Of a stretch of DNA of 64,000 nt, positions 13,910-61,570 are shown piece after piece. The notes below the pieces were generated by a model. That model was given only the letters and a program-made list of their open reading frames with translations. It had not been told where the DNA came from and ran no database searches. Position 1 is the stretch's first letter. Each line of letters opens with the position of its first letter. A program made the translations under genes and the position numbers. This DNA comes from a bacterium (GTDB lineage: Bacteria > Bacteroidota > Ignavibacteria > UBA10030), in contig JAZDJN010000054.1 of NCBI GenBank assembly GCA_043803945.1, forward strand, positions 64,001 through 128,000. The letters run 5' to 3'.

Positions 13910-14263
13910 GCCGCCAAGACGCCAAGAACTAAACAGAATTTTACTCTACGAGGGTGACTGAAAAGTAAACAAACAGGACTGTCATCCCCGAATGATTCAA
14001 CCTGCCTGTCGGCAGGCAGGTCGGGGATTTGTAAACATTATTCTTTAGGGTAAGACACCCGATAAAAGTCCCGGTATATGGTTTCGCTTCTCAGGAATCC
14101 CGCATTTGCGGAATCCCAAAGAACGGGAAATGCCTTAAAGCGGCACATTCGGGTGAGATATTTTTTTTTGACGGCCTCATGAAATCACTCTTTTATTTCG
14201 ACATCGGAGCGTCGAAATGAGCGGAACAAATAAAACCTTTACTTCCTTGGCGCCTTTGGCGGC
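13910..14263. repeat. Composite intergenic repeat element: outer gccgccaag inverted arms, inner REP-like hairpins with insertions
   Basis: gccgccaagacgccaag (13910) / cttggcgcctttggcggc (14246-14263); inner gtcatccccgaatg..tcggggat and gacacccgataaaag..cattcgggtgaga. Confidence 0.8.
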
Positions 14264-14289
14264 CATCTTTCAAAAAGGAGACATTTCTC

Positions 14290-15192
14290 ATGCAGCACAA
14301 TATCCCGGTTCTCCATGTCTGTGAGCAGACACTCGCTCAAGGCTATGAAAAAGCATTGCTCACGCTTTACATCAACGGTGTTCGACTGAAAACGCAATAC
14401 GACAAACCGGATGACCCGCCCAGCATCGATGCCACAATGGATATAACGATTCTCGAACCGCTCACCGATCCCATGATCCATAAAGCATTTCCCGGAGGCA
14501 TCGACGATCTCAAAGAATATTCGATGGAGCTAATGGGAGCGAAGGATCACTGGGTGAAGAATATCAATGATTCGGCAGATACACGCTGGGAGTACACCTA
14601 TCATGGCCGTCTTGCCAACTATGGCGCGTGGCAGGAGCTTCACAACGGCCGATCAAGTAAAGCGGGTTTTTTCGACATCGATCAGATTGAAGTGGTTATT
14701 AACAAGCTGGTAAAGCAGCCATTCACACGTCAGGCGCAGATGATCACCTGGATGCCGAACCTCGATGTCGATTGCTATGATCCGCCCTGTTTACAGTCAA
14801 TCTGGTATCGTGTAATGGAAGGGCAGGATGGGACCTGGTGGTTGAATTGCAATATCCGTTTCAGAAGCAACGATGCGTGGGGCGCGAACTTCATGAACAT
14901 GTTCGGCTTCACTCTCTTCAGCCGCGATATCATTGCAGCCGGACTCACCGCGAAAACAGGTAAGACAGTGAATCTTGGCCGTTTGAATTGGCATGCTGAT
15001 AGCTATCACATTTATGGCAAGGATATCGAGGCAGCGAAACAAATGCTATTTGACCGAATCGATCTGATTAGTTTTGAGGAGCGAACCTATAACTTCCACG
15101 ATGAATTTATTCAGGAGATGTTCAACGGAGCCGAGGTGACGATTCGGGAAAAAATAAAAATGTACGATCAAACTCATGCAAAGCGTTCGTAA
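14290..15192 (+). CDS. Thymidylate synthase-like protein, archaeal ThyA-type
   Basis: Strong SD (AAGGAG); YTYHGRL, TRQA, DPPCLQ (catalytic Cys), FRSNDAWGANFMN, DSYHIY. Confidence 0.8.
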   Translation: MQHNIPVLHVCEQTLAQGYEKALLTLYINGVRLKTQYDKPDDPPSIDATMDITILEPLTDPMIHKAFPGGIDDLKEYSMELMGAKDHWVKNINDSADTRWEYTYHGRLANYGAWQELHNGRSSKAGFFDIDQIEVVINKLVKQPFTRQAQMITWMPNLDVDCYDPPCLQSIWYRVMEGQDGTWWLNCNIRFRSNDAWGANFMNMFGFTLFSRDIIAAGLTAKTGKTVNLGRLNWHADSYHIYGKDIEAAKQMLFDRIDLISFEERTYNFHDEFIQEMFNGAEVTIREKIKMYDQTHAKRS

Positions 15193-15234
15193 GCTGTAAT
15201 AAGAATCCGTAGTTACGCAGCATATCAGAAAATA

Positions 15235-15345
15235 GCCACTGAGTCACCGAGAACACAGAGATATATCTTTAAGTCTTAAATACTTTCAATTTTTTTGTAC
15301 TTCCACTTGTTCTCTTCTTCTCTGGGTGCTCTGAGCCTCCGTGGC
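15235..15345. repeat. Inverted pair of 27-bp arms with 9-bp period
   Basis: gccactgagtcaccgagaacacagaga / tctctgggtgctctgagcctccgtggc. Confidence 0.8.
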
Positions 15346-15379
15346 TTAGTATTTGCCTGTTTACGTCAAACGTGTTTCA

Positions 15380-17920
15380 ATGAGTATGAACCTTCATTCT
15401 ATTATGAGGCAGATAGTGAAAAGATCATCGATCGTTCAAGCGATTCTTCTACTCGCTGCTATTGTTCCATCTTCATTACTCTTCTCACAAACATTGAAAG
15501 AGGCAATGGCGATTCGAATTCCCCGGCAGTTCCAGCGGTCGGTGCTTGCCATCGATCCCATCGAAGGAAAACTTATTACCGGAACATGGAAAGCTCCCCG
15601 AGAGGGAGATATTCAGATCTTTGGCAGTACAGATACTTCAAAATGGGAAAAGGTCGCTGCGGATTCGAACGGCTGGTTTGCAGGAAGAATGCTCAGTGAT
15701 GGGTATCTCTATACAACAGTCAATTCCGAGAAGAAGCGAATCGTAATTTTTGAAGGGATGGGCAACTCGTACGCGTTTATCAATGGTATTCCTCGGATGG
15801 GAGGGAAATATGCTTCAAAGGATACCTACGAATCCTGGGAACCTCGTTTTGATTACAGCCAGATACCAGTCCTTCTTGAACGGGGAGAGAATGAATTCCT
15901 CATCCGCAGCACACGCGGACGCGTGAAGTTAATACTGAAAGATCCCTCGGCACCTGTTGCATTCAATCCCAAAGATGTGACATTGCCCGATGGACTTCTC
16001 GCTGAGGAGATCGATACCTGGGGAGCGATCGTCATACTTAATGCAACTGAGAACATCCACAAAGGATTAACCGTCGTTGTGACCGGTGAAGGTCTTGAAA
16101 AAACAGTTACGGCAGTGCAGACATTGCAGCCGCTTGCTGCAAGAAAAATTCCTTTCCGCATTAAGGGTGCTGCCCCGCGTGTTGAAGGGAAAGTTGTTCT
16201 AACACTTCAACTTTTTCTGAAGGATGGCCAGAAGGAGCAGTTGCTCGATACGAGGACTCTGGATCTGGTTATCAAGCATCCGCTCAAGAATCACAAACGA
16301 ACATTCATCAGTAAGATTGATGGCAGCGTACAGTACTATGCCGTGAATCCGGCACAGAATATCGATCCGAAATTCAAACCGGCACTTCTGCTCACGGTCC
16401 ATGGTGCTTCGGTGGAGGCTGTGAACCAGGCAGGATCGTATGCGAGCAAGACGTGGGTGCATATTGTAGCGGCGACAAACCGGCGCCCGTATGGATTCGA
16501 TTGGGAGGATTGGGGAAGGATCGATGCTCTCGAAGTACTGGATGATTTCAAGAACCGTTATCCGGTCGATGAGGAGCGTGTGTATCTCACCGGTCACTCA
16601 ATGGGGGGCCATGGTGCCTGGATACTTGGAGCAACTTACCCGGATAAATTTGCAGCTATCGGTCCGAGTGCTGGATGGATCAGTTTCCAAACGTATGCAT
16701 CACGACAAAAGGACTCGGGGTCGACTGAGATGGAGAAACTGATCGCTCGCTCTATGCTTCCAGGAAATACACTGGCTCTGGCACAGAACTATAAAAATCA
16801 TGGCGTCTACATCTTGCATGGTGATAAAGATGAAAGCGTCCCTGTTGAGCAGGCGCGGCGTATGGTGAAAGTGCTCGGCGAGTTCCATAAGGATTTTGTG
16901 TATCACGAACAGAAAGATGCGGGCCATTGGTGGGATGTGTCGGATGAATCGGGCACAGATTGTGTCGACTGGCAGCCGATGTTCGATTTCTTTGCACATC
17001 ATGCACTTCCTCAAAAGAATCGCATTCGCAAAGTCGAATTTGTCACAGCATCGCCTGGTGTCTCTGCTCAGTGCAACTGGTTACGCATCGAAGCCCAGAT
17101 ACAACAATACGAACTTAGTTTGGCGAGTGTGCTGCTTGATCCAGGAGTGCACCGCTTCACTGGCACAACACAAAATGTTGCACGACTTGCCTTCGATGTC
17201 TCATCCTTCGCAGCGCTGGATTCATTGACGGTGAATTTGGATGGCAATGTCTTGAAAACGACAGTCGCAAGTTCAGTGCAGGGCGAATTGTGGTTAGCGA
17301 GAATCGAAGGCGCATGGTCGGTCAGTACTAAACCAGCTTCAACATCAAAGAATCCCCAGCGGTACGGTGCATTCAAATCTGTAGTTAACAATCGAGTGCT
17401 CTTTGTGTATGGTACGAAAGGATCGGCTGAAGAGAATGCCTGGGCATATGGAAAAGCACGATTCGATGCGGAATGCTTCCAGTACCAAGGCAACGGTGCT
17501 ATCGAAATTATCGCGGACACAGATTTTAATCCAACTGAAGAGGTAAACCGAAATGTGATTATTTATGGCAATGCAAACACCAATAGTGCATGGAAACACT
17601 TGCTTGGAGATTGTCCGGTTCAGGTGAAAAAGGGATCGGTGCAAATTGGAGATAAAATCTTTAACGGTGATAACCTAGCCTCCATCTTTCTCAGACCGCG
17701 GAAGGGAAGTGATATTGCGAGTGTTGGGGTTGTTACCGGTTCGGGTATTGCAGGGATGCGTCTGACCAACACACGACCATATTTGTATGCAGGGTATGCT
17801 CTGCCCGACCTCGTTATTTATGACACAGAGGTCTTGAAGCAAAGCAGCGAAGGATTAAGAGTTGCTGGATTTTTTGGACTCGATTGGAACGTTGAGTCTG
17901 GAGAAATTGTTTATAAATAA
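15380..17920 (+). CDS. Secreted alpha/beta-hydrolase (S9 peptidase / esterase-like) with large accessory domains
   Basis: Signal peptide; GHSMGG nucleophile elbow, LHGDKDESVP (Asp), AGHWW (His); start uncertain (15380/15386/15404). Confidence 0.8.
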   Translation: MSMNLHSIMRQIVKRSSIVQAILLLAAIVPSSLLFSQTLKEAMAIRIPRQFQRSVLAIDPIEGKLITGTWKAPREGDIQIFGSTDTSKWEKVAADSNGWFAGRMLSDGYLYTTVNSEKKRIVIFEGMGNSYAFINGIPRMGGKYASKDTYESWEPRFDYSQIPVLLERGENEFLIRSTRGRVKLILKDPSAPVAFNPKDVTLPDGLLAEEIDTWGAIVILNATENIHKGLTVVVTGEGLEKTVTAVQTLQPLAARKIPFRIKGAAPRVEGKVVLTLQLFLKDGQKEQLLDTRTLDLVIKHPLKNHKRTFISKIDGSVQYYAVNPAQNIDPKFKPALLLTVHGASVEAVNQAGSYASKTWVHIVAATNRRPYGFDWEDWGRIDALEVLDDFKNRYPVDEERVYLTGHSMGGHGAWILGATYPDKFAAIGPSAGWISFQTYASRQKDSGSTEMEKLIARSMLPGNTLALAQNYKNHGVYILHGDKDESVPVEQARRMVKVLGEFHKDFVYHEQKDAGHWWDVSDESGTDCVDWQPMFDFFAHHALPQKNRIRKVEFVTASPGVSAQCNWLRIEAQIQQYELSLASVLLDPGVHRFTGTTQNVARLAFDVSSFAALDSLTVNLDGNVLKTTVASSVQGELWLARIEGAWSVSTKPASTSKNPQRYGAFKSVVNNRVLFVYGTKGSAEENAWAYGKARFDAECFQYQGNGAIEIIADTDFNPTEEVNRNVIIYGNANTNSAWKHLLGDCPVQVKKGSVQIGDKIFNGDNLASIFLRPRKGSDIASVGVVTGSGIAGMRLTNTRPYLYAGYALPDLVIYDTEVLKQSSEGLRVAGFFGLDWNVESGEIVYK

Positions 17921-18000
17921 ACGAGAATAAATAAGCCGCCAAGTCGCCAAGAGCAAAAAGTAGCTTGAGAAAGAGATTAAAAATTTATCTAAGGAGGAAT

Positions 18001-18243
18001 ATGCAAAAGGTCATTCATGTCCACGATGTTTTGGATTTACTTAGATCAACTTCAAAAGACTTTTCATCCGATGGATTACTCTCACACTTGAATGACAAAT
18101 ATGGCCAGAATGTTCGATTTACAAATTGTACCGATCGGCTGCTGACCATCGATCAATTGCTCGGTTTCCTCACCGAAAGGGGTAAGGTCGAGATCAGAGA
18201 TGGGAACGTGATCCTCCTGGCTAAGGAAGCTTGTTCTTCATGA
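18001..18243 (+). CDS. YecH family (DUF2492) putative metal-binding protein
   Basis: SD AAGGAGG; pattern IHVHDVL...YG.NVRFTNC...FL.ERGK...C matches the YecH family as I recall it. Confidence 0.75.
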   Translation: MQKVIHVHDVLDLLRSTSKDFSSDGLLSHLNDKYGQNVRFTNCTDRLLTIDQLLGFLTERGKVEIRDGNVILLAKEACSS

Positions 18244-18759
18244 TGTTCCGGGAACTATCAGATTCTCTTTAATGTTCATAGCAGAGCATTGATACAAATA
18301 TGTAGCTGACTGAAAAAGAAGAAACCCGCCTATTGATGATAGGTTATGAGGTCTTGAGGAAGGCTGCATTAAACATACAATCCCGCTGCATGCGGGATTT
18401 GGTGTTTATAGCGGCTACAGAAACGAACGAGGGGCCGTCCTAAAAGTACCAAACTGTTGCACCCGATCGCTTGCCATTGTACACCCAAAGAGAATCTTTT
18501 TCGCAGGCGGGGAAGAACCGGAATCCAGTTCTTTGACTGTGATCTGGATCCCGTGTCAAGCATGGGATGACATTCTCTTTTCTTGAAGAAGCCATCGCTT
18601 TTGGCGGCGGTCATTCACTCAATCACTTGCTGTTTCACCGCCAGCATCTCTTTAAAATTCTTCCTGATTGAACCCTTAATTTGTTATAATCTTTCCGAAG
18701 AGGTCAGACGATAAGGATGAACAAAAGAGGCCTGGAAAACGACTATCATGTGAAAGCCA

Positions 18760-19308
18760 ATGGAAACGATTGAGAAACTTAGAGAGGAACTGTTAGTAAT
18801 TCGATGTCGCTTGGGTGAACTCTCCGCATATCGAGAGTTAGTCGAGATGTTTGAATCCAGGCTATTGTATTACATCAGAAGAATAGTCAATGATGAAGAG
18901 AGTGCCTACGATATCTTACAAGAAGTGTGGCTTGTCGTGTTACATAGAATTAAGATCCTGAGAGATACGAAAGCATTTCGTTCCTGGCTGTATAAGATCG
19001 CTCATGATAAAGCAGTATCGAAGATTCGTTCTGAGATAGTACTTGAAAAAACTAGAGTGGAATTCCAAATCCACAATTCAGATTTCGTGGAGTGGGAGTG
19101 GAATGTGGATCTGATTACCATAATTCATCGATTGCTTGATCAACTCCCGATTCAACAGCGCGAAGTTTTTATTTTATTCTTCTTAGAAGAACTAAACTAC
19201 GAAGAGATTGCCAAGATTACCGGTACGAATATCGGGACCGTAAAATCCAGACTCTTCTATGCTAAGAAAGCGATACGTGCACACTTAAAGGAGTACAAAA
19301 ATGTCTGA
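18760..19308 (+). CDS. ECF (sigma70 group 4) RNA polymerase sigma factor
   Basis: DILQEVW, FRSWLYKIA (region 2); YEEIAKI, GTVKSRLFYA (region 4). Confidence 0.93.
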   Translation: METIEKLREELLVIRCRLGELSAYRELVEMFESRLLYYIRRIVNDEESAYDILQEVWLVVLHRIKILRDTKAFRSWLYKIAHDKAVSKIRSEIVLEKTRVEFQIHNSDFVEWEWNVDLITIIHRLLDQLPIQQREVFILFFLEELNYEEIAKITGTNIGTVKSRLFYAKKAIRAHLKEYKNV

Positions 19309-19684
19309 AAATATGCCTTCCAGAGAAATGAAACAACTATTCTACACAGAAGGGACTGAACGACGAGAATCCTTTTCGGACTATCGAGGGGAGGTTGAAA
19401 AAGTAATAGATCTCCACGTTCGAATTCAACGATTGCAGAAGTGGATTACGATACCAATATTTTTGATGCTTATTCTGCTTGGAGTTCTTCTTCTTGTGAG
19501 CTTAGGATGGGTCAGTAATGCTGAATCGAAAATCCAAAACCTCGTCATTGGATTTGGAATTATCACTGTTGCTCTTGGAATGATTCTGCAAACCCAAATG
19601 TTGAGAAATACACTAGATCAAAAAAGAGAACTCTTGGAGATTCAGATACGACTTTCTGAAATTGCTGAAATGATGAAGTCATAG
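19301..19684 (+). CDS. Two-TM membrane protein, candidate anti-sigma factor
   Basis: Overlaps the ECF stop; soluble N-terminus followed by two hydrophobic segments. Confidence 0.6.
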   Translation: MSENMPSREMKQLFYTEGTERRESFSDYRGEVEKVIDLHVRIQRLQKWITIPIFLMLILLGVLLLVSLGWVSNAESKIQNLVIGFGIITVALGMILQTQMLRNTLDQKRELLEIQIRLSEIAEMMKS

Positions 19685-19803
19685 GTTTCTTGTGATAACG
19701 ACGATCGTCTGGTTTATTCTCCTTCGATCTTGTGTTTCTTCTCTCACTTCTCATTATATTCCCAAAGCGATCAGATTACTTCCATTACTATCAGCACAGG
19801 TTT

Positions 19804-20328
19804 ATGGAACTCATCCTTTTCATCCTCGGCACAATATTCCTTGTCGTCTTCTCGTGGAAATTTTCTGTAAAGGCCGGCCGCTATCATGGCATCTACCGGT
19901 TCTTTGGTTTTGAAAGTATTCTCGCGTTGCTCCTTCTCAATTACAAGTCTTGGCTCAGCGATCCCGCTTCGATTCACCAGATACTCTCAGTCATTCTTCT
20001 CACCATCTCTCTCTTTGCGGCAATTGCCGCGTTCTATTTCTTTTTGAGGTTGGGGAAATCGGAAGGCCAATTAGAAAATACTACCAAGCTCGTGAAGATT
20101 GGAATCTATAAATTTATCCGGCATCCGATGTATGCCTCACTGATGCTGCTTGGGACAGGGATCTTTCTCAAGTCGATTGATCTTACAACAACGCTTATCG
20201 CCGGTGTCAATATCTTTGCACTCTTTCTTACCGCAAAGAAGGAGGAGAAGGAAATGGTGGCAAAATTTGGCTTTGAATATGAGTCTTATATGAAACGAAC
20301 AAAAATGTTTCTTCCTTATCTCTTTTAA
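19804..20328 (+). CDS. Isoprenylcysteine carboxyl methyltransferase / PEMT family membrane protein
   Basis: LVKIGIYKFIRHPMY, KKEEKEM..KFG.EY..YMKRTKMFLP. Confidence 0.85.
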   Translation: MELILFILGTIFLVVFSWKFSVKAGRYHGIYRFFGFESILALLLLNYKSWLSDPASIHQILSVILLTISLFAAIAAFYFFLRLGKSEGQLENTTKLVKIGIYKFIRHPMYASLMLLGTGIFLKSIDLTTTLIAGVNIFALFLTAKKEEKEMVAKFGFEYESYMKRTKMFLPYLF

Positions 20329-20349
20329 TTGATTCGAGATCGTTCAAGC

Positions 20350-20799
20350 ATGCATAATATTATCATTGATATTATTGCGGTTGTGAGTGGTAACATATTC
20401 AATCTGGCTCTTACGGCTCTCTTCACTGCCCGGATCCGTTCGCGTGAGAATGGGGAATATGCCTTCGGCATCATTTCGATGCTCACAGCGATACCGCTCC
20501 TGCTTGTCTCTATCGCAAACCTTGCAGGCATGAGAGAGTGGTGGACCTATGTTTTACCAATCCCTCTGATTATTTTCAGTGTACTTGAATTGATATTAGA
20601 CTACATTCTCAGGTTAAATTTTCGCGAAACCAAATTACTCATTCCCTATCTGTTCTGTCTGTACCTTGGACAGTGGTGGTTGGTAGGATATTCATTTCTC
20701 GTCGATCGCTCGCTGGGGTTCTTCACTCTTGGGACGTATGCAGTGGCTCTCGCTGCCACCTGGCTGGCCCATCGAAAGCCAAAGGTACTACAAGCTTGA
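20350..20799 (+). CDS. Hypothetical integral membrane protein
   Basis: About five hydrophobic segments; co-oriented with its neighbours. Confidence 0.65.
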   Translation: MHNIIIDIIAVVSGNIFNLALTALFTARIRSRENGEYAFGIISMLTAIPLLLVSIANLAGMREWWTYVLPIPLIIFSVLELILDYILRLNFRETKLLIPYLFCLYLGQWWLVGYSFLVDRSLGFFTLGTYAVALAATWLAHRKPKVLQA

Positions 20800-20868
20800 T
20801 TGCTCAGGAGATAGTTTTGAGCACTAAGAATTATGGTAGGACGAACTCATACTGATGAGGAGGCATCC

Positions 20869-23206: not shown

Positions 23207-23345
23207 GAGGCCGTCTAAAAAGAAAAAATTTGTCTCACCCGAATGCTTTTATCGGGTGTCCAGTGCCTTTATCTTTCAAATATCTGGATTCCCGCTTAAA
23301 GCATGCGGGAATGACAGCGTCCTTTTTTAGTTTTTAGACAACCCC
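23207..23345. mobile_element. MITE-like element containing paired REP-like hairpins
   Basis: Terminal inverted repeats gaggccgtctaaaaa / tttttagacaacccc (12/15 match); internal cacccgaatgcttttatcgggtg and attcccgc..gcgggaatgac. Confidence 0.6.
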
Positions 23346-25670: not shown

Positions 25671-27143
25671 TTGCCCAAACGAACAGACATTCAATCCATT
25701 CTCATTATCGGTTCCGGACCGATTGTCATCGGTCAGGCATGTGAATTCGATTATTCCGGTACGCAGGCATGTAAAGTGCTGAAAGAAGAGGGATACCGGA
25801 TTATCCTCATCAACAGCAATCCTGCCACAATCATGACCGATCCGGATCTTGCCGATGCCACCTACATCGAGCCCATCACCCCGTATTTTGTCGAAAAGAT
25901 TATCGAGAAGGAACGCCCGGATGTTATCCTCCCGACAATGGGCGGCCAGACAGCCCTAAACATTGCGGTGGAACTTGCGGAAAGTGGTGTACTGGAGAAA
26001 TATGGTGTCGAGCTCATCGGAGCAAAACTTCCGGCAATTAAGAAGGCAGAGGATCGTGAGCTCTTTGAAGAGACGATGAAAAGTATCGGGCTGGAGACAT
26101 CCCGAGGCGCATTCGTCAAATCGCTCCCTCAGGCCCTGGAGGTAGCAGAGGAGATCGGCTTTCCGATCATTATACGGCCTTCGTTCACATTGGGTGGAAC
26201 AGGCGGGGGTACGGCGTACAATCTCCAGGAGTTCAAGGAAAAGGTTGAGCACGGCATTACCAGCAGTCCAATTCATCGCGTCTTGATAGAAGAATCTGTC
26301 ATCGGATGGAAGGAGTATGAACTAGAGGTGATGCGTGACATGAGGGATAATGTCGTTATCATCTGCTCGATTGAAAACTTCGATCCAATGGGCGTCCATA
26401 CCGGAGATTCCATTACGGTTGCACCGGCGCAGACCCTGACGGATAAAGAGTACCAGACCCTGCGCGACGCCGCCATCAAGATCATTCGTGCCATCGGCGT
26501 TGATACCGGAGGTTCTAATATCCAATTTGCTATTCATCCCGAGACGGGCAAAATGCTGGTCATTGAAATGAATCCCCGTGTCTCCCGATCATCGGCGCTT
26601 GCATCGAAGGCAACTGGATTTCCCATTGCAAAAATTGCTGCAAAGCTTGCCATTGGATACACGTTGGACGAAATCCCGAATGACATCACTCGAGAAACCC
26701 CGGCTTCGTTCGAACCCACCATCGACTATTGTGTTGTAAAAATACCACGGTGGGATTTTGAAAAGTTCAAGGGTGTCGATGATACACTTGGCGTCCAGAT
26801 GAAATCTGTCGGCGAGGCAATGGCCATCGGCAGAACATTTAAGGAGTCACTGCAAAAAGCTCTCCGCTCCCTCGAGCAGGGAAGGGATGGACTTGGCTCC
26901 GATGGGAAGGATGTTTTGGATGTCCGCTCGCTGACAGACCAGAAACGGATTGAATGGAAGAAGAAGGTCTTCGACAGATTGAAGAAACCAAAGCCGGAGA
27001 ACATCTTTTTCCTCCGCTATGCATTTCAATTGGGTGCAACGATTGATGAATTATATGAGATTACCAAAATCGATCGCTGGTTTCTTCATAACATTAAACA
27101 AATTGTTGATTTTGAGGAGGAGCTTTATGCTTTTCGCACATAA
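25671..27143 (+). CDS. carB: Carbamoyl-phosphate synthase large subunit, N-terminal half
   Basis: [30 protein letters not shown]; IRPSFTLGG; HTGDS; [10 protein letters not shown]; ends just after IDRWFL. Confidence 0.95.
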
Positions 27144-27600
27144 GATCGTATGGGGAGTGCTGTTTATTAGTGTGGTGGGCACGGCCTGTGCACAAGTTGT
27201 CATTCCACCTGATCGGAATGAACTGGCGGAAGGGAAGAGTACCTGGACTCTCATCTATGCGGAAGCGAATGGATTGCCTGGACCGAGGGAAGTGCTCCGG
27301 CTTCAAGATAAACTTGCATTAACTCGTGACCAGATAAAGAAGGCCGAAGCGCTGGAAAAAGTGACATCGAGTTCTGCCAGGGCGAAAGGCGAGGAAATCA
27401 TCCTGGAAGAAGAATCACTCTTTAACATGTTTGAAGCAGGAAGCGTTTCTGAAAAGAATCTCCGGTCCAAACTAGAACGATGTGCAAAATTACGCGCCGA
27501 TATGCAATTCGTTCATCTTCAATCGCATTTGCGCATGAAGCAGGTACTCACACCGGAACAGCTCCAGAAATACAAGACATTGAAGGCTGATGAAAAGTAA
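27127..27600 (+). CDS. Exported Spy/CpxP-like helical protein lying between the carB halves
   Basis: SD GAGGAGG before ATG 27127; signal peptide; [19 protein letters not shown] and terminal VLTPEQ (LTxxQ) motifs. Confidence 0.7.
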
Positions 27601-29407
27601 TCCCAAAACTAAGGGTGTCCCGGAAAGGATCACCAAAGAAATTCTTCTCAAGGCCAAGCAGTACGGTTTTTCCGATCGTCAGCTCGCGCATATCTGGGGA
27701 TCATCCGAGATGGCTGTCAGGGCAGTACGGCAGCATCACGGCATTCTTCCTGTCTACAAAACAGTGGACACCTGCGCAGCAGAATTTGAAGCTCACACAC
27801 CGTACCATTACTCGACGTACGAACAGGAAAATGAATCGATTTGCAGCGATCGAAAGAAAGTGGTGATCCTTGGCGGCGGGCCGAATCGGATCGGGCAGGG
27901 TATTGAGTTTGACTATTGCTGTGTCCATGGCGTCTTTGCACTCGAAGAGGAGGGTATTGAGACGATCATGATCAACTGTAATCCGGAGACCGTCTCGACC
28001 GATTACGATACGACGGACAAACTATATTTCGAACCGCTGACGCTCGAGGATGTGCTCAACATCTGTGATCATGAAAAACCGTTCGGCGTGATTGTCAGTT
28101 TCGGTGGACAGACTCCACTCAAGATTGCTAAAGCGTTGGAGCAAAATGGCGTAACTATTCTTGGCACTTCGCCTGAAGGGATCGATATTGCCGAGGACCG
28201 GGAGCGGTTTGGAGCACTCCTGAGAAAACTGAAAATTCCGCATCCGATGTATGGCACAGCCTACTCGGTGAATAATGCTGTGTTGGTCGCTGAACAGATC
28301 GGATTTCCTGTCCTTGTTCGTCCTTCGTATGTTCTGGGTGGAAGAGCAATGGAGATTTGTTACAACAGTGATTCTGTGCGAGAGTATATGAAAAAAGCCG
28401 TGGATGTTTCGCCGGAATATCCCGTGCTTATCGACCGGTTTCTTGAAGATGCTTTTGAGTTCGATGTTGATGCTGTTTCCGATGGAAAGGATGTACTAAT
28501 CGGCGGTGTGATGGAACATATCGAGGAAGCCGGTATCCACTCTGGTGATAGTTCTTGTGTGATTCCACCCTACATGATCTCGCAGAAGAATCTGGAGGAA
28601 CTTAAAAATTATACCGTGCGGCTTGCCAAAGCGCTTAAAGTGGTTGGATTGATTAACATTCAATATGCGATGAAAGATGGAGTGGTCTATGTTCTGGAAG
28701 TGAATCCCAGAGCTTCCCGCACCGTTCCTTTTGTGAGCAAGGCAACAGGAATTCCTCTGGCTAAAATTGCTGCCAAAGTGATGGTGGGCCGAACGCTTGA
28801 AGAGTTGGGGGTGAAAGATTTTGATTTTAGAACCTTGAAACACATCTCTGTCAAGGAATCGGTCTTCCCATTTTCCAAATTCCCTCGTGTTCCGGTCTTC
28901 CTTGGCCCAGAGATGAGATCAACCGGCGAGGTCATGGGAATTTCACACGAGTTTGGCGCTGCGATTGGAAAAGCTCAAATGGCTGCCGGTAATGCTCTCC
29001 CGACTGATGGTACAATCTTCATCAGCGTTAATGATAGCGATAAAAATGACACGACTTTGAATATTATCCGGGAATACGTCACACTCGGATTCAAACTCGT
29101 AGCGACCCAAGGAACCGCACAATTCCTTCGCAAAAATGGAATTGAGGCGGGCAGCATATTTAAAGTTAATGAAGGCCGGCCAAATATTGTCGATTTGATA
29201 AAGAATGGCAAGGTCCAGCTCGTCATCAACACTCCACTGGGTGAAGAATCCCGATACGACGAGTTTTCAATCGGTTGGGCTGCAATCGAACAAAAAATCT
29301 CTCTCATTACCACACTCTCTGCCGCGGCCTCTGCTGTGAAAGGGATAGAAACTCAAAAGCGCAGGGAATATCAGGTTAAAAGTATCCAGGAATATCACTC
29401 TCTTTAA
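27590..29407 (+). CDS. carB: Carbamoyl-phosphate synthase large subunit, C-terminal half
   Basis: [57 protein letters not shown]; C-terminal MGS domain. Confidence 0.95.
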
Positions 29408-45789: not shown

Positions 45790-45934
45790 GCCGCCAAGTG
45801 CGCCAAGAGCTTTATTGTTTCAATGTTTTTATAAGGATCTGAATCTATCACATTTTAATCTTGGCGTTTTGCCTGCCTGCTGCAGGCAGGGCGTTCTTGC
45901 CCGCCTGTGCGCCGCTTGCGGCGGGCAGGGCGGC
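45790..45934. repeat. gccgccaag-type inverted element with two palindromic micro-insertions
   Basis: Removing 45872-45890 and 45900-45929 restores tcttggcgttttggcgttcttggcggc. Confidence 0.85.
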
Positions 45935-46292: not shown

Positions 46293-46451
46293 GCCACGAA
46301 GGCACAAAGACACGAAGAGAAAACAAAATGGAGTTTACAAATATCTCGATGTGTCGATCGGGAAATAATGGAAAAACAATCTCCAAAATAATTCGTGCCT
46401 TTCCTGCCCGCATAAAGTGGTCCCAGATGGCAGGCGGGGAGACTCGGTGGC
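46293..46451. repeat. gccac-type inverted element with one micro-insertion
   Basis: gccacgaaggcacaaagacacgaa / ttcgtgccttt[46403-46438]gagactcggtggc. Confidence 0.8.
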
Positions 46452-48491: not shown

Positions 48492-48630
48492 GCCACCAAG
48501 GCACGAAGTCACTAGGAAAATCATATAATTCAAAAAAAACTTATCTTTCTTTGTGCCTTAGAGACTTTTCAACCAGAGGCTGATGCGCCCGCCTGAACGA
48601 CGTAGTCGGGCAGGCCTATGGTGCAGTGGC
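48492..48630. repeat. gccac-type inverted element with a doubly nested insertion
   Basis: gccaccaaggcacgaag / ctttgtgccttagagacttt[48569-48625, containing 48588-48614]gtggc. Confidence 0.75.
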
Positions 48631-52137: not shown

Positions 52138-52693
52138 TCACAGTTCTTCAATGGTGATTGACGTGTTTGTATAGATACAGATTTTTGCTGCAGTTTCCAA
52201 TCCTTCCTGTACAATCTCGCGGGCATCCAATGGGGTATGCTTGACCAACATGCGTGCAGCCGCCAGAGCGTAGCTTCCTCCTGAACCTACCGCGACGATA
52301 CCATCGTCAGGTTCAATGACGTCGCCGGTCCCCCGAGATGATCAATGCATGGTCTTTGTCAAGGACGGCCAGGAGAGCTTCAAGCTGGCGAAGATACTTG
52401 TCGGTGCGCCAGAGCTTGGCCAGTTCTACAGCCGCTCGAACAATCTGTCCCTGATGTTGTTCTAATTTCTCTTCAAACCTGTCGAGCAAACTGAACGCAT
52501 CCGCAGTTGCTCCTGCAAAGCCGACGAGTACGGAGTTATTATAAATTTTCCGAATCTTGTTGGCTTTCTGCTTCATGATAGTGTTGCCCAATGTTACCTG
52601 ACCATCGCCGCCGAGGGCTACGTTACCGTTATGCCGAACACCGAGAATGGTTGTTGCATGGATGGTGTGTGTTAAACAGGGTTCGTTGTTCAT
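52138..52693 (-). pseudogene. hslV: ATP-dependent protease subunit HslV with a +1 frameshift (real or sequencing error)
   Basis: TTILGVR...GDGQVT; one extra base in the C5 run at 52330-52334; the shifted frame continues [18 protein letters not shown]...[14 protein letters not shown]. Confidence 0.9.
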
Positions 52694-54912: not shown

Positions 54913-54952
54913 TGATATGTTGACAAGAGAACATGAACACGGGAGTGAGAGT

Positions 54953-55567: not shown

Positions 55568-56532
55568 TGAAACATGATGACTACAAAAACCTTCTTTATC
55601 TGCATTGCTGGGATGAGGCAGATGATGATCAAAAAGGCATTCTGAAAAAGCATCTCCTCACCTGCAAGGAATGCCGCATTGAGTTGTCTGAAATCGATGG
55701 GATGAAGCATATCCTGCAGGATCAAAGCTCGATCGAAGTGACCGATGATATGCTCGCAGAGGCACGCCGTGAGCTTCGCGTTGCACTTCGACTGGAGAAG
55801 AATAAACGTCGATCATTCCAGGAACTACTGGAATACCTCTCCATATTTTTCGAGCGCCCGATTCCCATTGCCATCGGCGGAGTAAGCTTGGTGCTGACCG
55901 GCCTGCTCGTTGGGTACTTTGCATTTCAACCTTCTGAACCAGGAAGTGATTTCCGATTGACAGGAATAACACAAGCGAATACTCCTGAGAGTGAGGAGCC
56001 GCAAATCACAAATTTCCGCCTCACAACTCAGGATCAGTTCTCCGGCCAGGTTGAAATAGAGTTTGATCTTATAACACCCGTCAAAATGCGCGGCACAGCG
56101 GATGATCCCGCAATTCAGAAAGTGCTGGCTCAGACACTTCTTGATGAACAAAATCCGGGCGCTCGGTTACGCACAGTCACAGCATTAGCCTCTCAGATGG
56201 AAAAAACCAAGCGGCTCGATACAGAGACAAAGTCAGCTTTGATTTTCAGCCTGAAGGCCGATCCCAATGATGGGGTTCGTAAGGAAGCGCTGCGAACACT
56301 GCTGCAATTTCCGATGGACAAAGAGATTAAACAGGCACTTACCTATGTTTTGCAGAAAGATATCAATCCCGCTATGCGCATTGAGGCTATTAACAGTCTC
56401 GGGAAGTTGATGACGGAGTCGAATTCACAGGATACCGATATCCTGAATGTCTTAAAAGAAAAAATGGAACGTGATAATAATAATTACATTCGCATTCGTG
56501 CGAGCAACCTCTTAAAGGAGATACAACAATGA
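55567..56532 (+). CDS. Anti-sigma factor: HxxxCxxC zinc domain, TM segment and extracytoplasmic HEAT repeats
   Basis: HLLTCKEC; hydrophobic segment; NPGARLRTV / NDGVRKEAL / NPAMRIEAI repeats. Confidence 0.85.
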   Translation: MKHDDYKNLLYLHCWDEADDDQKGILKKHLLTCKECRIELSEIDGMKHILQDQSSIEVTDDMLAEARRELRVALRLEKNKRRSFQELLEYLSIFFERPIPIAIGGVSLVLTGLLVGYFAFQPSEPGSDFRLTGITQANTPESEEPQITNFRLTTQDQFSGQVEIEFDLITPVKMRGTADDPAIQKVLAQTLLDEQNPGARLRTVTALASQMEKTKRLDTETKSALIFSLKADPNDGVRKEALRTLLQFPMDKEIKQALTYVLQKDINPAMRIEAINSLGKLMTESNSQDTDILNVLKEKMERDNNNYIRIRASNLLKEIQQ

Positions 56533-57734
56533 AACGGTACCTATTGGTTACATTCGTGATCCTTGGCTTGATGGCCGCGTCTCTCTCTGCAGCAACGCGT
56601 GATGGAGAGAGTGAACGATCAAAATCTTTCGCCGTCACCAAAGGCGGAAAGCTCATTGTAAAAGTCTATGGTGGTGAGTTGAAAATTACGAGCTGGGAAA
56701 AGAATGAAGTGTTCGCAAAGGTGACCAAGCTCGATGAGAAGGATAGCGAACAGCTTGTTATGGAACAGGATGGCAATACGGTACGAATCGAATTGAAGAA
56801 TAAATCTTCACGTTCGAGGCGGCAATCACCGGAATTTGCAATCAGTATTCCGTCTCAATTCGATGCCCAGTTGTCTACGGGTGGCGGCGGCATTAGTGTG
56901 CAAGGGAAAATTAAAGGTTCGGTAACCGGCACCACAGGTGGAGGAAGTATCACCCTAGAAGATGCCGTGGAAGGAGAATTGAATCTTACGACTGGGGGTG
57001 GTGAGATTAGGGCAAAAAATGTTGCTGGCAATACAACACTGACAACCGGAGGCGGAGAAATTTCTATCGGAAGTATTGAGGGGAAGGTTACAGTAACAAC
57101 TGGCGGCGGCTCGGTAACCCTCGATAAGGTATTGGGTGAATTGACAGTAACAACCGGTGGCGGAAATATCGTCGTTGAGAGTGTTACAAAATCCCTGAAA
57201 GCGACCACCGGTGGCGGCGAGATTTACATTAAGAATGCCGGGGGAGACATCAAAGCCTCATCGGGTGGCGGCGAAATGAAAATCGGCAAAGTCACAGGAA
57301 ATGCAACGATGAGCACTGGGGGTGGGGCTATAAGCCTGGATGGTGCCACCGGTAAGGTTTCCTTAACAACGGGTGGGGGCGAATTGGATATCCGCAATGT
57401 AACCGGTTCAGTCAAAGCGACCACCGGTGGAGGCGATATCGTAGCAGAATTGAGGCCCACGGGGCAGGGGGGTAGTAAACTAACCTCTGGTGGCGGAGAT
57501 ATTACACTCTATGTTCCGGAAGACGCCAGGGTTACGATCATTGCCGTCATTAAGGTTGAGGACAAGGATGATTTCAAAAAGTATAAAATAATGTCAGAAT
57601 TTAAGCATGATAAGTATGAATCTAACGATCGCGATGAGGAAATACGGGCTGTTTATACGCTGAATGGCGGGGGAGAAGAAATTACACTTACCACTTCAGA
57701 ATCCGACATCACGATAAAAAAGCTTAAGAAATAG
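56529..57734 (+). CDS. Exported DUF4097-type beta-strand repeat protein
   Basis: Signal peptide; about 11 [TS][TS]GGG repeats at 19-20 aa spacing. Confidence 0.85.
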   Translation: MKRYLLVTFVILGLMAASLSAATRDGESERSKSFAVTKGGKLIVKVYGGELKITSWEKNEVFAKVTKLDEKDSEQLVMEQDGNTVRIELKNKSSRSRRQSPEFAISIPSQFDAQLSTGGGGISVQGKIKGSVTGTTGGGSITLEDAVEGELNLTTGGGEIRAKNVAGNTTLTTGGGEISIGSIEGKVTVTTGGGSVTLDKVLGELTVTTGGGNIVVESVTKSLKATTGGGEIYIKNAGGDIKASSGGGEMKIGKVTGNATMSTGGGAISLDGATGKVSLTTGGGELDIRNVTGSVKATTGGGDIVAELRPTGQGGSKLTSGGGDITLYVPEDARVTIIAVIKVEDKDDFKKYKIMSEFKHDKYESNDRDEEIRAVYTLNGGGEEITLTTSESDITIKKLKK

Positions 57735-57755
57735 CTCATATTAAAGTTTGCTCAC

Positions 57756-57790
57756 AAGCCCCTTGACCTAGATTGGTGAGGGGCTTTTTC
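57756..57790 (+). terminator. Rho-independent terminator
   Basis: aagcccct...aggggctt stem plus T run. Confidence 0.7.
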
Positions 57791-57886
57791 TATATCCTCC
57801 CAAGAAACCTATCTTTGGAAAACCAACCCAGGTTTATTGAATTTCCTCCGTTATGTTCATAACCTTAGAATAATTCCTTGCCTTGT

Positions 57887-57914
57887 CAACCGATGGTCTG
57901 ACGATGGCGTCTAA
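57887..57914 (+). promoter_or_regulatory. Putative ECF-dependent promoter
   Basis: CAACC-N17-GTCTAA upstream of the second ECF gene. Confidence 0.6.
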
Positions 57915-57945
57915 ACAATGTAAGCTCAAGCAGAAGGAACTCTTG

Positions 57946-58497
57946 ATGGCTGAATCCCTGGAGCGCCAACTTGTCTGCCAGGTTAAAGAGGGAAGTCAGG
58001 AAGCATTTCGTGAACTTGTTCAAATGAAGATGAAGCAAGCATACGATTTGGCGTACAGCTTTGTGAACGATCATGACGATGCGGAAGATATCACACAGGA
58101 ATCATTTGTCAAAGCATATCAATCCATGGCGAATTTTCGCGAGGACGCTGAATTCGGAACCTGGCTCTATCGGATTGTTACAAATACCGCTCTCGATCGA
58201 TTGAAACAGAAAAAACGCAAGAAGAATCGAACTCTTTCACTGGACGATTCGGAGGTGAAGACGATGGCAATATCACATGTCAACCAGGATGAGATGGACC
58301 TCAGTATTCATATTGAACGGGCACTCCATGAACTTCCCACACTACAGCGTGCTGTGGTGATTCTGCGCCACTATGATGGCCTTTCAACACGGGATGTGAG
58401 CAAAATTCTTCAATGCTCGGAAGGGACTGTGAAAACCCATCTTCATCGTGGTTTGAAGAAGATGAGAAGCACTTTGAATTTTCTGGTGGAGGCTTAG
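57946..58497 (+). CDS. ECF sigma factor
   Basis: DAEDITQESF, FGTWLYRI, EGTVKTHLHRG; SD before ATG 57946. Confidence 0.93.
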   Translation: MAESLERQLVCQVKEGSQEAFRELVQMKMKQAYDLAYSFVNDHDDAEDITQESFVKAYQSMANFREDAEFGTWLYRIVTNTALDRLKQKKRKKNRTLSLDDSEVKTMAISHVNQDEMDLSIHIERALHELPTLQRAVVILRHYDGLSTRDVSKILQCSEGTVKTHLHRGLKKMRSTLNFLVEA

Positions 58498-58499
58498 CA

Positions 58500-59297
58500 A
58501 TGAGACATCGAACGGTACAAAATTTACTCTACGACTATCTTAACGACGAATTATCTGCACCCGAAGCAGCTCAGGTTCGCGATCATTTAGCACGATGCAA
58601 TAAATGCTTTGGTGAACAACAAATCATCAAGGAAAGCATACGCCTGTTGCAGCCGAAGCAGGTGAAGCCGAGTGAGAGTTTGTCTGAAACATACTGGCAC
58701 AACTTTGCTGTCGAAATTCTGCATCAGGTTCAGTCTGGCGCAAAAAAAGAGAACGCGCTAAAGTTATGGTGGGAATCGAACCGATACTGGTTTCTCTCTC
58801 GCAAATCATATTCGCTTTCAATCGCCGGTGGACTTGCGTTGGTAATCCTGGCAGTGTTTCTCTGGCCGCTCACCCGATCTGTTGATCCCGAAGTTGGAAA
58901 TTCAATCAGACTAGTGTCAGAATCTCCAGATGAGCAGGTGAATCAGGAATTATCGGACTACTTCCATAAATCGAAAATACTCCTGGTAGGCATCTCGAAC
59001 ATCCGATCGGAGGATGTAGGGAACATTGATCTTTCCGTTGAACGCGATGCTGCAAGAAACCTGGTGAGGCAGGCTCGTACCTTCGATCATAAAGAGGTCG
59101 ATGCCCGCTCTCGAATGCTCATTAAGGCTATGGAGAAGATCCTCATTGAATTGGCAAATATGGAAGAGCGGGACGGGCTTTCTGACGTCGAGCTCATTCG
59201 TACAGGAATTCGGGAAGAGAACATGCTCTTCAAGATCAGAATGGCAGAAACAGCGGCCGGCGCACGGCAAGAGAATTCAGATAAGAATAATAATTAA
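58500..59297 (+). CDS. Zinc-binding anti-sigma factor (HxxxCxxC) with TM segment
   Basis: LYDYLNDELS, HLARCNKC, one TM segment, helical C-terminal domain. Confidence 0.85.
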   Translation: MRHRTVQNLLYDYLNDELSAPEAAQVRDHLARCNKCFGEQQIIKESIRLLQPKQVKPSESLSETYWHNFAVEILHQVQSGAKKENALKLWWESNRYWFLSRKSYSLSIAGGLALVILAVFLWPLTRSVDPEVGNSIRLVSESPDEQVNQELSDYFHKSKILLVGISNIRSEDVGNIDLSVERDAARNLVRQARTFDHKEVDARSRMLIKAMEKILIELANMEERDGLSDVELIRTGIREENMLFKIRMAETAAGARQENSDKNNN

Positions 59298-59310
59298 TTG
59301 GAGAAACGTC

Positions 59311-61326
59311 ATGAATCAATTACGAACTTCTATCCTCACCTCTGTGGTAATGATGTGCTGCTCAATTGCAGTATCACAGGAGCAACATGCATCTGCAACT
59401 GTGCAGGAGCACAACATTTCTGCGGCGACTGCACAGACAGCGTCAGGGCTTTTGTACCAGAGCGAGGCAGCCAGTGAGATCAACCTGCGTGAGCGTGAGG
59501 AACAGGATGACCCATCGTATACACAGTATAAGGCTGGCTACAAGTGTATTCTCGATGAACAATTCGAGAAAGCACGACAACTATTTTCCGAGATGATAAA
59601 AAAATATCCGAAGAGCAAGCATCTCGATAAAGCAGAGTATTGGTCAGCGTATTCCTGGAAAAACAGTGACAGAAAGAAAGCATCGAGTGCCTTCAAAGCG
59701 TTTATCAAAAAATATCCCTCGAGCAGCTATTTTGATGATGCCATTGCAGAACTCACCAATCTCCAGGGCGGTGAAAAAAATCTTGGTGGATCAATGGGGA
59801 TAGCCTATCCCACTGGAAGTTATTCCCTGAGTGCGGAGCGATACTATCTTGAGGCACAGGAAGCAAAAGCTCGATCGCTCTTCCAATCCCAATATCAAGT
59901 GGTTCAAAAGTATAACATGGATCAGAATGCCAAGGAGTTAGTTCAACGCTACAAGTCGCAGGTGAGTGCAGCAGCCGGATTATCGTATAGCACCAGTGCA
60001 GAAGTAAAAAAGGAAGATCCGAAACTCAGAATGAAACGGGAAGCTCTCCAGGCTCTTGTTCGTTCCAATAAAGATGAGAAGACATTCGAAGTCGTCAAAG
60101 CGATGGTGTTCGATAGCACTCAGCCTGAAAGCATACGCGAAACAGCACTCCAGGCTCTCACGCAATTCAATAAGAAGGAGCTGACAGAAATCTATTTGCA
60201 ATTCATGAAGAGCGATGCCCCAAACAAATTGAAACAACGCGCACTATATGCAATGGCTTCGTCGGGAAAGGATAATGAAAAAGTATTCCAGATGATCAAG
60301 CAGGTGGCCCTTGATACCAAGGAGGATGAAGAGATGCGGCAGGCAGCGCTCCATGCTCTTCAATTTGTGAGTGATTCTGCAGCGGTGGGTCTCTATACCC
60401 AGATAGCCAATCAAGATGCTGATAAGAAAATTCGCTCATCAGCGGTCTATAAACTCGGCTCCATGCATCGCTCAGATGATCCACGGATCTTTGAAGCGAT
60501 CAAAGAGTTTGCATTGAATCAACAAGCCGAACCAGAGGTGCGTGAAGCGGCACTCTACTCCCTCAGACAATTTGAAAAGAAGAAGGTCCTCGATACCTTC
60601 CTCAAGATAGCGAAAACTGATCCGGATATAAAAATCAGAGTCATTGCAATCAGGAATTTGATGGGGAGTTCAGAGGATCCTCAAGCGGCAAGCTTCCTCA
60701 AAGAAGTTATCCTCAATAAAGAGAGCGATTACCAGGAAAAAGAAGCTGCACTCTATTCCATTGAAACAACGAAAGAGGGCGGACATGAACAGCTCTATGC
60801 CGAAATCTTAAAGAGTTCATCGGACGAACGATTCCGAGAAATGGCCTTACATTTACTGGTCAGAGCGAATAAAGATAATCCCTCTAAAAATCTCCAGATT
60901 CTGCGCGAAATAATTTTGGATCTATCGAAACCTAATCGTCTCCGCGAGGGTGCACTTGCAAGTCTCGCCTCATTGCGCAATGATGCCGCTCTCAGCTTAT
61001 TGCTCGAAGTCGCAAAATCGGAAAAGGATGAGCGAATTAAGACGGCTGCAATTTACCAGATCGCCAATAGCAGCAAGAACAAAGCTAAATCGTTGGAGAC
61101 ATTAATTTCTCTCTTCGATTCTCTCGACAAGAAATCGTCTCAAGTTGCCCCCAGCCTCCTCTATGCGATCGCATCAATTGGAACGGAGCAAGCCGTTGAC
61201 TTCCTCGCAAAGGTTGCAAAAACCCATGAGAACATGGATCTGCGTCAACAGGCTGTTGCGTTCCTAGGAAACATTGGTGGTGAGAAAGCCAGAAATGTTC
61301 TCCTCGATATTCTGAAGGAGAAGTGA
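59311..61326 (+). CDS. Exported TPR + HEAT-repeat protein
   Basis: Signal peptide; KKYP.S TPR pair; about 10 HEAT units (RE.AL.AL). Confidence 0.85.
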   Translation: MNQLRTSILTSVVMMCCSIAVSQEQHASATVQEHNISAATAQTASGLLYQSEAASEINLREREEQDDPSYTQYKAGYKCILDEQFEKARQLFSEMIKKYPKSKHLDKAEYWSAYSWKNSDRKKASSAFKAFIKKYPSSSYFDDAIAELTNLQGGEKNLGGSMGIAYPTGSYSLSAERYYLEAQEAKARSLFQSQYQVVQKYNMDQNAKELVQRYKSQVSAAAGLSYSTSAEVKKEDPKLRMKREALQALVRSNKDEKTFEVVKAMVFDSTQPESIRETALQALTQFNKKELTEIYLQFMKSDAPNKLKQRALYAMASSGKDNEKVFQMIKQVALDTKEDEEMRQAALHALQFVSDSAAVGLYTQIANQDADKKIRSSAVYKLGSMHRSDDPRIFEAIKEFALNQQAEPEVREAALYSLRQFEKKKVLDTFLKIAKTDPDIKIRVIAIRNLMGSSEDPQAASFLKEVILNKESDYQEKEAALYSIETTKEGGHEQLYAEILKSSSDERFREMALHLLVRANKDNPSKNLQILREIILDLSKPNRLREGALASLASLRNDAALSLLLEVAKSEKDERIKTAAIYQIANSSKNKAKSLETLISLFDSLDKKSSQVAPSLLYAIASIGTEQAVDFLAKVAKTHENMDLRQQAVAFLGNIGGEKARNVLLDILKEK

Positions 61327-61358
61327 TTCTCACACAAGAGTTGTGATCACTGATCCAC

Positions 61359-61388
61359 AAAGCCCCGGGAAGTTCTTCCGGGGCTTTT
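61359..61388. terminator. Bidirectional rho-independent terminator
   Basis: aaagccccgggaag-tt-cttccggggctttt between convergent genes. Confidence 0.75.
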
Positions 61389-61424
61389 ATTCTTTATTGG
61401 GTCTAATACCCCGACGCTTGCGTC

Positions 61425-61570
61425 GTCATTCCGGCCCGCCTGCCGGCGAGGCAGGCGAAAGCTGGAATCTAGAAACTGGATGCCAGCCTGCCTGCCAACC
61501 TGTCCGCCGGAGCTTTGCGTAGGCGGAAGTGCCTGGCACGCAGGCAGGTAAAGACATTCGGGTGTGACAG
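61425..61570. repeat. Paired REP-like hairpins with nested palindromic insertions
   Basis: gtcattccgg[61435-61455]cgaaagctggaatc and ctggatgccag[61487-61548]taaagacattcgggtgtgacag. Confidence 0.8.

Follow-up and report, generated by a model that had tools for sequence, protein, structure and literature searches.

A family of very small, GC-rich palindromic elements nested in the intergenic repeats of an Ignavibacteria genome and its order

This work concerns a family of very small, GC-rich palindromic elements, here called the CCYG family, which share the ends CCYGCCYG and CRGGCRGG and came to attention in a stretch of 64,000 nucleotides (the window) from a bacterium of the lineage UBA10030 within the Ignavibacteria (assembly GCA_043803945.1, contig JAZDJN010000054.1, positions 64,001 to 128,000). 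The window lies on contig C54, and the genome comprises 5.54 Mb in 118 contigs with 46.5% G+C. This genome is labelled G000, names of the type C1 to C118 denote its contigs, and G followed by three digits denotes relatives in the same order. We observed the family, the exact boundaries of its members, their presence and absence at matching sites, the polarity of an insertion, their nesting, and their order-wide spread with bursts in single lineages, and the reading of these elements as mobile insertions is well supported. They are probably non-coding mobile elements that are moved in trans, with a Y1 HUH transposase as the leading candidate for the enzyme. A previous description of the window from its letters alone (the sequence-only reading) had taken them for short non-coding insertions whose ends are shared and whose cores vary, and this description was borne out by genome-wide excision and by series of paralogues.

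The genome-wide search suggested by that reading was performed with the pattern CCYGCCYG...CRGGCRGG and a core of 0-70 nt, and it gave 153 matches, or 141 once nested matches were merged. Control patterns were far rarer, with 12 matches for octamers in swapped order, 15 for direct repeats, one for the reversed pattern and none for the reversed-swapped one, and the alaS loci of 160 other bacteria, approximately 1.38 Mb in all, contained a single match. The unpaired octamers (n=701) look like chance occurrences, since 573 of them (82%) lie in crude coding sequence, close to the genome average of 87.6%. By contrast, 128 of the 141 elements lie outside open reading frames (ORFs) of at least 200 aa, which cover 77.5% of the genome, and most of the remaining 13 lie right at the beginning of an ORF whose start codon has probably been set too far upstream.

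The minimal unit is a hairpin of 19-20 bp whose left side holds CCYG twice and whose right side holds CRGG twice. The family as a whole ranges from about 19 to 84 nt, with length clusters at 19-21, 27-39 (peak at 36/37) and 60-84 nt and with cores of 3 to about 65 nt between the fixed ends. The ends form a perfect palindrome (CCTGCCTG...CAGGCAGG) in 61 copies and are mixed in 19, and an asymmetric form (CCTGCCCG...CAGGCGGG) occurs 32 times in one orientation and 27 times in the other. As single-stranded DNA, the asymmetric form takes a slipped-register fold with a tail of four unpaired bases, 5'-terminal CCCG or, on the other strand, 3'-terminal CGGG. The perfect form lacks such a tail, and stems are formed where the core is short. 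The 36/37-mers agree in length and have a semi-conserved centre, while the rest of their A+T-rich core varies.

Natural empty sites are part of the evidence for the mobile-insertion reading. For each element, the 25 nt on either side were joined and the genome was searched with the product, an ungapped match with at least 10 nt across the join on each side being counted. Such a match was found for 90 of the 141 joins, some of them at 100% identity over 50 nt, as compared with 62 of 600 random intergenic 50-mers, which places the elements in repeats at about six times the rate of spacer sequence in general. When 3544 spacer pieces (1.36 Mb) were compared all against all and co-linear matches with a gap in only one partner were collected, 185 precise indels of 12-120 nt emerged, 58 of them with the strict ends and many others with degenerate ends.

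Seven copies had been listed in the window. Six have the exact ends, and the seventh, at 61435-61455, departs from them at its right end, which is degenerate. The copies, their hosts and related features of the window are as follows.

13910..13929: unoccupied arm of a GCCGCCAAG-type host repeat; in other copies, elements interrupt the motif between GCCGC and CAAG.
13984..14028: host hairpin with an 8-bp stem in which ATCCCCGA pairs with TCGGGGAT, the 20-mer lying at the loop edge; nine empty copies of the family elsewhere in the genome.
14001..14020: 20-nt element, perfect palindrome with an 8-bp stem as DNA (-8.9 kcal/mol, z -4.2); spacer flanked by genes for a fucosidase and a thymidylate-synthase-like protein.
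23215..23335: paralogue of a two-hairpin unit of ~110 nt, empty at both sites; clean 20- and 19-nt gaps in a three-way alignment.
45790..45934: host unit of ~145 nt with inverted GCCGCCAAG.../...CTTGGCGGC arms and two elements in its right arm.
45872..45890: 19-nt element, perfect form; spacer between clpS and alaS; absent in paralogues at C21, C46 and C1.
45900..45929: 30-nt element, asymmetric (CCCGCCTG...CGGGCAGG), with an inner hairpin; same spacer; absent at C1:401-440, present at C21, C46 and C5.
46403..46438: 36-nt element, asymmetric, with an A+T-rich 16-nt core; the element folds poorly alone (z 0.43); spacer between icd and clpS.
48569..48625: host, a 30-nt hairpin module of the TCAGCCAGAGGCTGA... 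class, which other repeats show as a precise indel (up to 11 empty partners).
48588..48614: 27-nt element, asymmetric; spacer between a HIT-family gene and a TPR gene; members of the 27-mer class are found in relative G126 and in three or more further contexts of the genome.
61425..61469: host hairpin GTCATTCCGG...CTGGAATC.
61435..61455: 21-nt element starting with CCCGCCTG and ending, degenerately, with GAGGCAGG; spacer between a HEAT-repeat gene and dprA; clean 21-nt gap relative to C99.
61487..61548: 62-nt element with a 9-bp outer stem around two inner hairpins (-18.3 kcal/mol, z -2.9); same spacer.

All seven copies sit in spacers between ORFs, and, in line with the sequence-only reading, which saw no transposase in the window, none of the 50 scanned ORFs of at least 90 aa matched a transposase or integrase family. 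Its statement that each element occupies a different repeat did not hold: the copies at 45872 and 45900 share one arm of one unit of ~170 nt, whose left arm is without a 25-nt module present in four paralogues. The right flank of the 62-nt element is half of a CACCCGA-type host hairpin. That excision restores a host motif was confirmed by natural empty copies for five of the seven (14001, 45872, 45900, 48588 and 61435). The empty site of 45872 is found at C21:36111-36170 (98% over 60 nt), that of 45900 at C1:401-440 and that of 61435 at C99:8387-8328 (96.7% over 60 nt), and 19 matches span the junction of 48588.

Two host units are seen in three states. The GCCGCCAAG-arm unit contains neither element at C1, the 30-mer at C21 and C46, and both the 19-mer and the 30-mer in the window and at C5. 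The two-hairpin unit is empty in the window, contains the 20-mer at C104, and contains the 20-mer together with a 19-mer at C98. The claim that no target is duplicated was also upheld: among 132 contexts, repeats of the flanks were seen once at 3 nt (2.1 expected), once at 4 nt (0.9 expected) and never at 5 nt or more.

One possible explanation for these patterns is that a few old insertions were spread by amplification of the host repeats and by gene conversion, and that some of the "empty" copies are precise deletions of the hairpin. Amplification of this kind is a partial contributor and is compatible with transposition; as an account of the whole family we regard it as unlikely. It agrees with the location of 64% of the elements in repeats, with the shared flanks of five to six copies of a 67-mer that lie in a unit of 140-185 nt at contig ends, and with 36-mers in a GTCACGGT hairpin that differ by loop letters only. 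Deletion by slippage, by contrast, needs flanking direct repeats, of which none were seen, and deletion alone is ruled out because the same 20-mer occupies at least eight, and the same 27-mer at least three, unrelated flank contexts within the genome. Amplification leaves these unrelated flanks unexplained, as it does the presence of different elements, ranging from 19 to 82 nt, at one host site (GCCGC/CAAG), and an insertion in a tRNA gene with five empty orthologues.

The latter was found in relative G103, which belongs to the same order and another family.

Locus L189 (G103:C18:47686-50705), positions 1291-1365 and 1479-1574: tandem copies of tRNA-Arg(CCG), of which the downstream, syntenic copy is split.

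The 20-mer lies exactly between TTGGATA and GAGCG at the D-loop edge of this copy, with unambiguous boundaries and nothing duplicated, while the second copy 190 nt upstream is empty and the orthologous tRNA is empty in five congeners. The element was therefore gained at this site and not deleted from the others. The filled copy carries an acceptor-stem change, as expected of a disabled gene, and the intact upstream copy may be its replacement. In the congeners the tRNA alone could be aligned and the spacers could not, as even the coding DNA is only 65-73% identical. Excising all 141 elements of the studied genome in silico revealed no further tRNA (47 before and 47 after). A search for more tRNA insertions with GGCRGG-N15-60-GGTTCRANTCC retrieved normal tRNAs that start with GGCGGG or GGCAGG, and a candidate in G126:C28 is not a clean case, being a nested element beside a 3' fragment that resembles a tRNA.

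Several points weigh against mobility. The element at 46403 has two weak empty-site matches only (85-87%) and that at 61487 has no empty paralogue in the genome search; several copies share flanks, so that part of the copy number must come from host-repeat amplification; and no orthologous empty site is shown in the studied genome, the polarity coming from the relative G103. For orthologous comparison of the window, a public sequencing run covered a small share of the stretch and gave only short contigs from distant relatives, and in collections of metagenomes and genomes even the nearest AlaRS loci reach no more than ~60-63% identity.

The suggestion that the elements prefer pre-existing hairpins or repeats was supported for repeats by the empty-site counts above; for hairpins the signal is weak and shows no peak at the junction. 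A perfect stem of at least 7 bp surrounds 11% of junctions and 5% of control positions nearby, and the preference for hairpin loops is not significant. Some cases at the edge between loop and stem are striking, yet an insertion rule of this type was rejected, given that stems abut the junction in 14 of 129 contexts and in 6-16 at shifted positions. Tables of the flanks (51 oriented and 60 palindromic contexts) contain no conserved target word, only a weak CC at -4/-3 and GG at +3/+4.

The precise indels that do not belong to the CCYG family are other small hairpin modules of 24, 30, 33 and 47 nt. These modules also nest mutually as precise indels, for example the TCAGCCAGAGGCTGA... 30-mer and the 47-mer GGAATCCCGCA...GCGGAATCCC, as can be seen in the window at 48569-48625 and 14040-14130. 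Within the CCYG family, a 38-mer at C3:18083 is the 19-mer with a 19-nt insert, and the 62-84-mers enclose hairpins that are also found as separate modules. Members of 27-80 nt are largely minimal hairpins whose loop has taken up other small hairpin modules, which accounts for the shared ends and different cores, and since the CCYG family is one of several mutually nesting hairpin modules, the spacers resemble mosaics of repetitive extragenic palindromes (REPs) and bacterial interspersed mosaic elements (BIMEs).

Many contigs start or end within a few hundred bases of such repeats (C13, C17, C32, C93, C99, C100 and C5), and the mosaic spacers probably break the assembly at contig ends. The 67-mer found there was considered as the terminus of an insertion sequence (IS), but it sits in the 140-185-nt repeat and not at an IS end.

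The sequence-only reading had noticed no copy in a coding region, which is correct for the window and not for the genome, where about 2-5 of the 141 copies are intragenic. Two genes for resistance-nodulation-division (RND) pumps carry in-frame inserts with an element. The CusA-like protein encoded at C64:42870-46220 aligns with E. coli CusA over residues 1-783 and 846-1094; residues 784-845 (62 aa), which this alignment skips, are thus extra, and a 21-nt element in phase 0 encodes residues 823-829. In the MdtB-like protein at C76:8282-11782 (minus strand), residues 168-235 (68 aa) are extra, and the insert holds a 68-nt element and a host hairpin with an intergenic paralogue at C12. Both inserts were defined against solved homologues and lie outside the window.

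C64:45219-45404: insert in the CusA-like pump gene.
C76:11078-11281: insert in the MdtB-like pump gene.

Across the order, the 19-mer was found in 10 of 30 relatives (reversed control 0) and the general pattern in 108 of 120 sampled genomes, in up to 146 copies. At least 40 copies were present in 19 of the 120 relatives, with 0-13 matches for the reversed controls, and 47 of the 120 exceeded their own control by at least 10. Within genera the copy number varies 10- to 70-fold: G103 has 146 copies and its seven congeners 2-11, G054, G104 and G122 have 79-101 and G126 has 12, and in a further genus four genomes with 134, 105, 51 and 24 copies stand beside one with a single copy. Subfamilies (the 20-mer, 21-mers, the 27-mer, 30-mers and 34-37-mers) are found again in other families of the order. 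The distribution is that of an old element family with bursts in particular lineages.

The recurrence of subfamilies, including 36-mers with their semi-conserved centre, across families of the order, and the extragenic location, could also be read as signs of selection on functional cis-elements, such as protein-binding sites, RNA-stabilising hairpins or terminators, in place of selfish DNA. Such a function could coexist with mobility, and as a replacement for it we find it quite improbable. The elements show no bias towards gene 3' ends (84 in tandem, 18 in convergent and 12 in divergent spacers, where spacer lengths give shares of 0.69/0.13/0.17; p 0.13), their stems are not followed by a T-run, and an Rfam search of the window gave no matches. 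The 10- to 70-fold variation within genera and the copies in a tRNA gene and in pump genes likewise argue against a cis-function as the explanation.

Copies are inserted at exact CC...GG boundaries without target duplication, mostly into other intergenic repeats and occasionally into a tRNA gene or, in frame, a protein gene. A protein acting in trans would recognise the conserved ends on folded single-stranded DNA, and among known chemistries the HUH route is the most plausible for a hairpin element that duplicates no target. The leading candidate mover would be one of the HUH Y1 transposases of the genome, related to IS200 or to the REP-associated tyrosine transposases (RAYTs), which account for 12 matches to Y1_Tnp (PF01797); the link is weak, and an enzyme of another kind may be responsible. 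Enzyme profiling across the order covered PF01797 only, and its statistics are not corrected for relatedness. Y1_Tnp is present in 19 of 19 high-copy relatives and in 74 of 101 others (Fisher p 0.0066), the 27 genomes without it have 0-34 elements (median 8), and the correlation between the number of elements and Y1_Tnp across the 120 relatives is weak (Spearman rho 0.27).

The sequence-only reading had suggested a look for RAYT-like genes flanked by the same ends, and none were found: CCYG elements lie on both sides of none of the 12 Y1_Tnp loci here and of none of 11 in G054, G122, G103, G060 and G104. This result speaks against a Y1 enzyme as the mover, as do five others. G054 contains 79 elements, and its single Y1_Tnp gene has other flanks. 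Several Y1_Tnp-rich genomes lack elements altogether, for example G094 with 11 matches. The burst genome of genus g26 has two Y1_Tnp matches, while a congener with five has 10 elements. There is no fixed flanking tetranucleotide of the IS200/IS605 kind. Finally, the strand bias of the asymmetric form relative to GC skew is not significant (7/15 against 9/8, p 0.21). With 0 of 23 loci flanked on both sides, no target word and a weak correlation, the HUH/RAYT mechanism proposed earlier is still something that we infer.

Each Y1_Tnp locus is flanked by its own, different repeats, and one such repeat family hosts CCYG elements. A single element was seen within ~200 nt, on one side only, at three loci (C65 and C72 of the studied genome and L178 of G103). 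At C72:16100-17430 and C65:26800-27650 the Y1_Tnp genes stand amid arrays of their own repeats in a classical REPtron-like arrangement, and the C72 repeat hosts the 27-mer elsewhere in the genome.

It is possible, and in our judgement about half as probable as movement by a Y1 transposase, that the elements are mobile through a different enzyme, for example a hairpin- or cruciform-specific recombinase or nuclease conserved in the order, and that the Y1 transposases serve only the other repeats that flank them. The separate repeats at each Y1_Tnp locus, with none of the 23 flanked on both sides by CCYG elements, agree with this, and the lack of a target word, the rho of only 0.27 and a burst in g26 that does not track Y1_Tnp number point the same way. 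Against it, no candidate gene was found, in an analysis that profiled PF01797 and not IS110, TnpB or GIY-YIG. In a list of ORFs by position, without annotation, no recurrent candidate gene was noticed between neighbouring elements and the ORFs there look ordinary. The absence of transposase families from the window and the presence of Y1_Tnp in all 19 high-copy relatives also disagree with it.

By its features, the CCYG family is miniature mobile DNA of the REP/BIME or SDR type. The small dispersed repeats (SDRs) of Nostoc and relatives, described by Elhai and colleagues in 2008 (Genome Res 18:1484), are reported to be repeats of 21-27 nt that form clean insertions inside other repeats and have no identified enzyme. 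Compared by description and not by sequence, the CCYG elements share with them the clean insertion of about 21-27 nt in repeats without target duplication, and differ in their end motif and in a host that, by best AlaRS matches, is of an FCB-group-like lineage and not a cyanobacterium. The variable nested cores, the order-wide spread and a tRNA insertion that gives polarity go beyond the reported SDRs. BIMEs of E. coli and neisserial intergenic mosaic elements (NIMEs) of Neisseria are mosaic intergenic repeats composed of short modules, and the CCYG spacers resemble them in the presence or absence of modules in varied combinations among paralogues. Unlike them, the CCYG modules nest hairpin in hairpin, and one family has strict 8-nt ends.

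IS200/IS605 elements insert beside a fixed word of 4-5 nt and have two different subterminal hairpins, whereas CCYG elements are a single hairpin and lack a tetra- or pentanucleotide target. The terminal inverted repeats with target-site duplication of miniature inverted-repeat transposable elements (MITEs) of the DDE type are likewise not the pattern in the 132 contexts or in the tRNA case. IS200/IS605 elements and their derivatives do share hairpin ends and the lack of target duplication with the CCYG family, and a single-strand "peel and paste" transposition would fit their precise insertion (PMC6006769).

The REPs are tagged palindromes of 20-40 bp with GTAG or CGTC unpaired at one end; they are sometimes found inside other palindromes or in frame in genes, and for one superfamily no transposase is known (PMC3733652). 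REPs and their paired forms, the REP doublets forming hairpins (REPINs), resemble the CCYG family as imperfect palindromes of 20-40 bp that are extragenic and of high copy number, with several families per genome (PMC3733652, PMC3116915). The 141 short stem-loops, with main classes of 19-21 and 27-39 nt, agree with this, and one CCYG form, the asymmetric one, has a 4-nt unpaired tail at one end as REPs are described to have. The tail is CCCG/CGGG in place of GTAG/CGTC, and the perfect form is tailless. REPs are predominantly extragenic and lie downstream of genes; the CCYG elements are outside ORFs of at least 200 aa in 128 of 141 cases, and convergent or tandem spacers show no significant excess of them (p 0.13). 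CCYG cores of 3 to about 65 nt between fixed ends also set the family apart, as does the lack of REPtrons, RAYT genes flanked by their own REPs, with CCYG ends (0 of 23 loci). No regular inverted doublet like that of REPINs was noticed, without a formal doublet analysis, and within 70 nt 12 swapped and 15 direct pairs occur. Four strings of 19/20-mers had no match in a literature string search, and the supplements of PMC3733652 may list further families.

The Rickettsia palindromic elements (RPEs) are found in frame inside genes that probably still work (PMC3733652). The 62- and 68-aa RND pump inserts are similar, although intragenic copies are rare in the CCYG family, its elements are much shorter and the pump inserts are composite.

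Two further features of the window were noticed in passing. The carbamoyl-phosphate synthase large subunit (25671-29407) is present as three overlapping ORFs (25671-27143, 27019-27600 and 27590-29407) and not as one, which could reflect frameshifts, an assembly error or a real split. At 52313-52690, next to an HslU-like AAA gene, lies an ORF of the proteasome subunit family (HslV-like) that is only 125 aa long; it may be truncated, or its start may be wrongly placed.

The CCYG family is unusually clean material for studying the movement of very short repeats, among them the cyanobacterial SDRs and those REPs that lack a RAYT, with fixed and searchable ends, exact boundaries, a polarity given by a tRNA gene, and more than 100 genomes with 0 to ~150 copies. 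Given these bursts and this spread, both a hunt for the enzyme by phylogenetic profiles and biochemistry on oligonucleotides are therefore feasible. It can tentatively be speculated that the hairpin of 19-20 bp is alone a complete mobile unit, among the smallest known, whose (CCYG)2 ends would be read by an enzyme other than a classical RAYT, and that it persists across the order, bursts in single lineages, builds the mosaic by nesting, and sometimes adds peptide segments or disrupts tRNA genes. For the organism itself, the CCYG family accounts for the mosaic spacers of the genome and probably for the assembly breaks at them.

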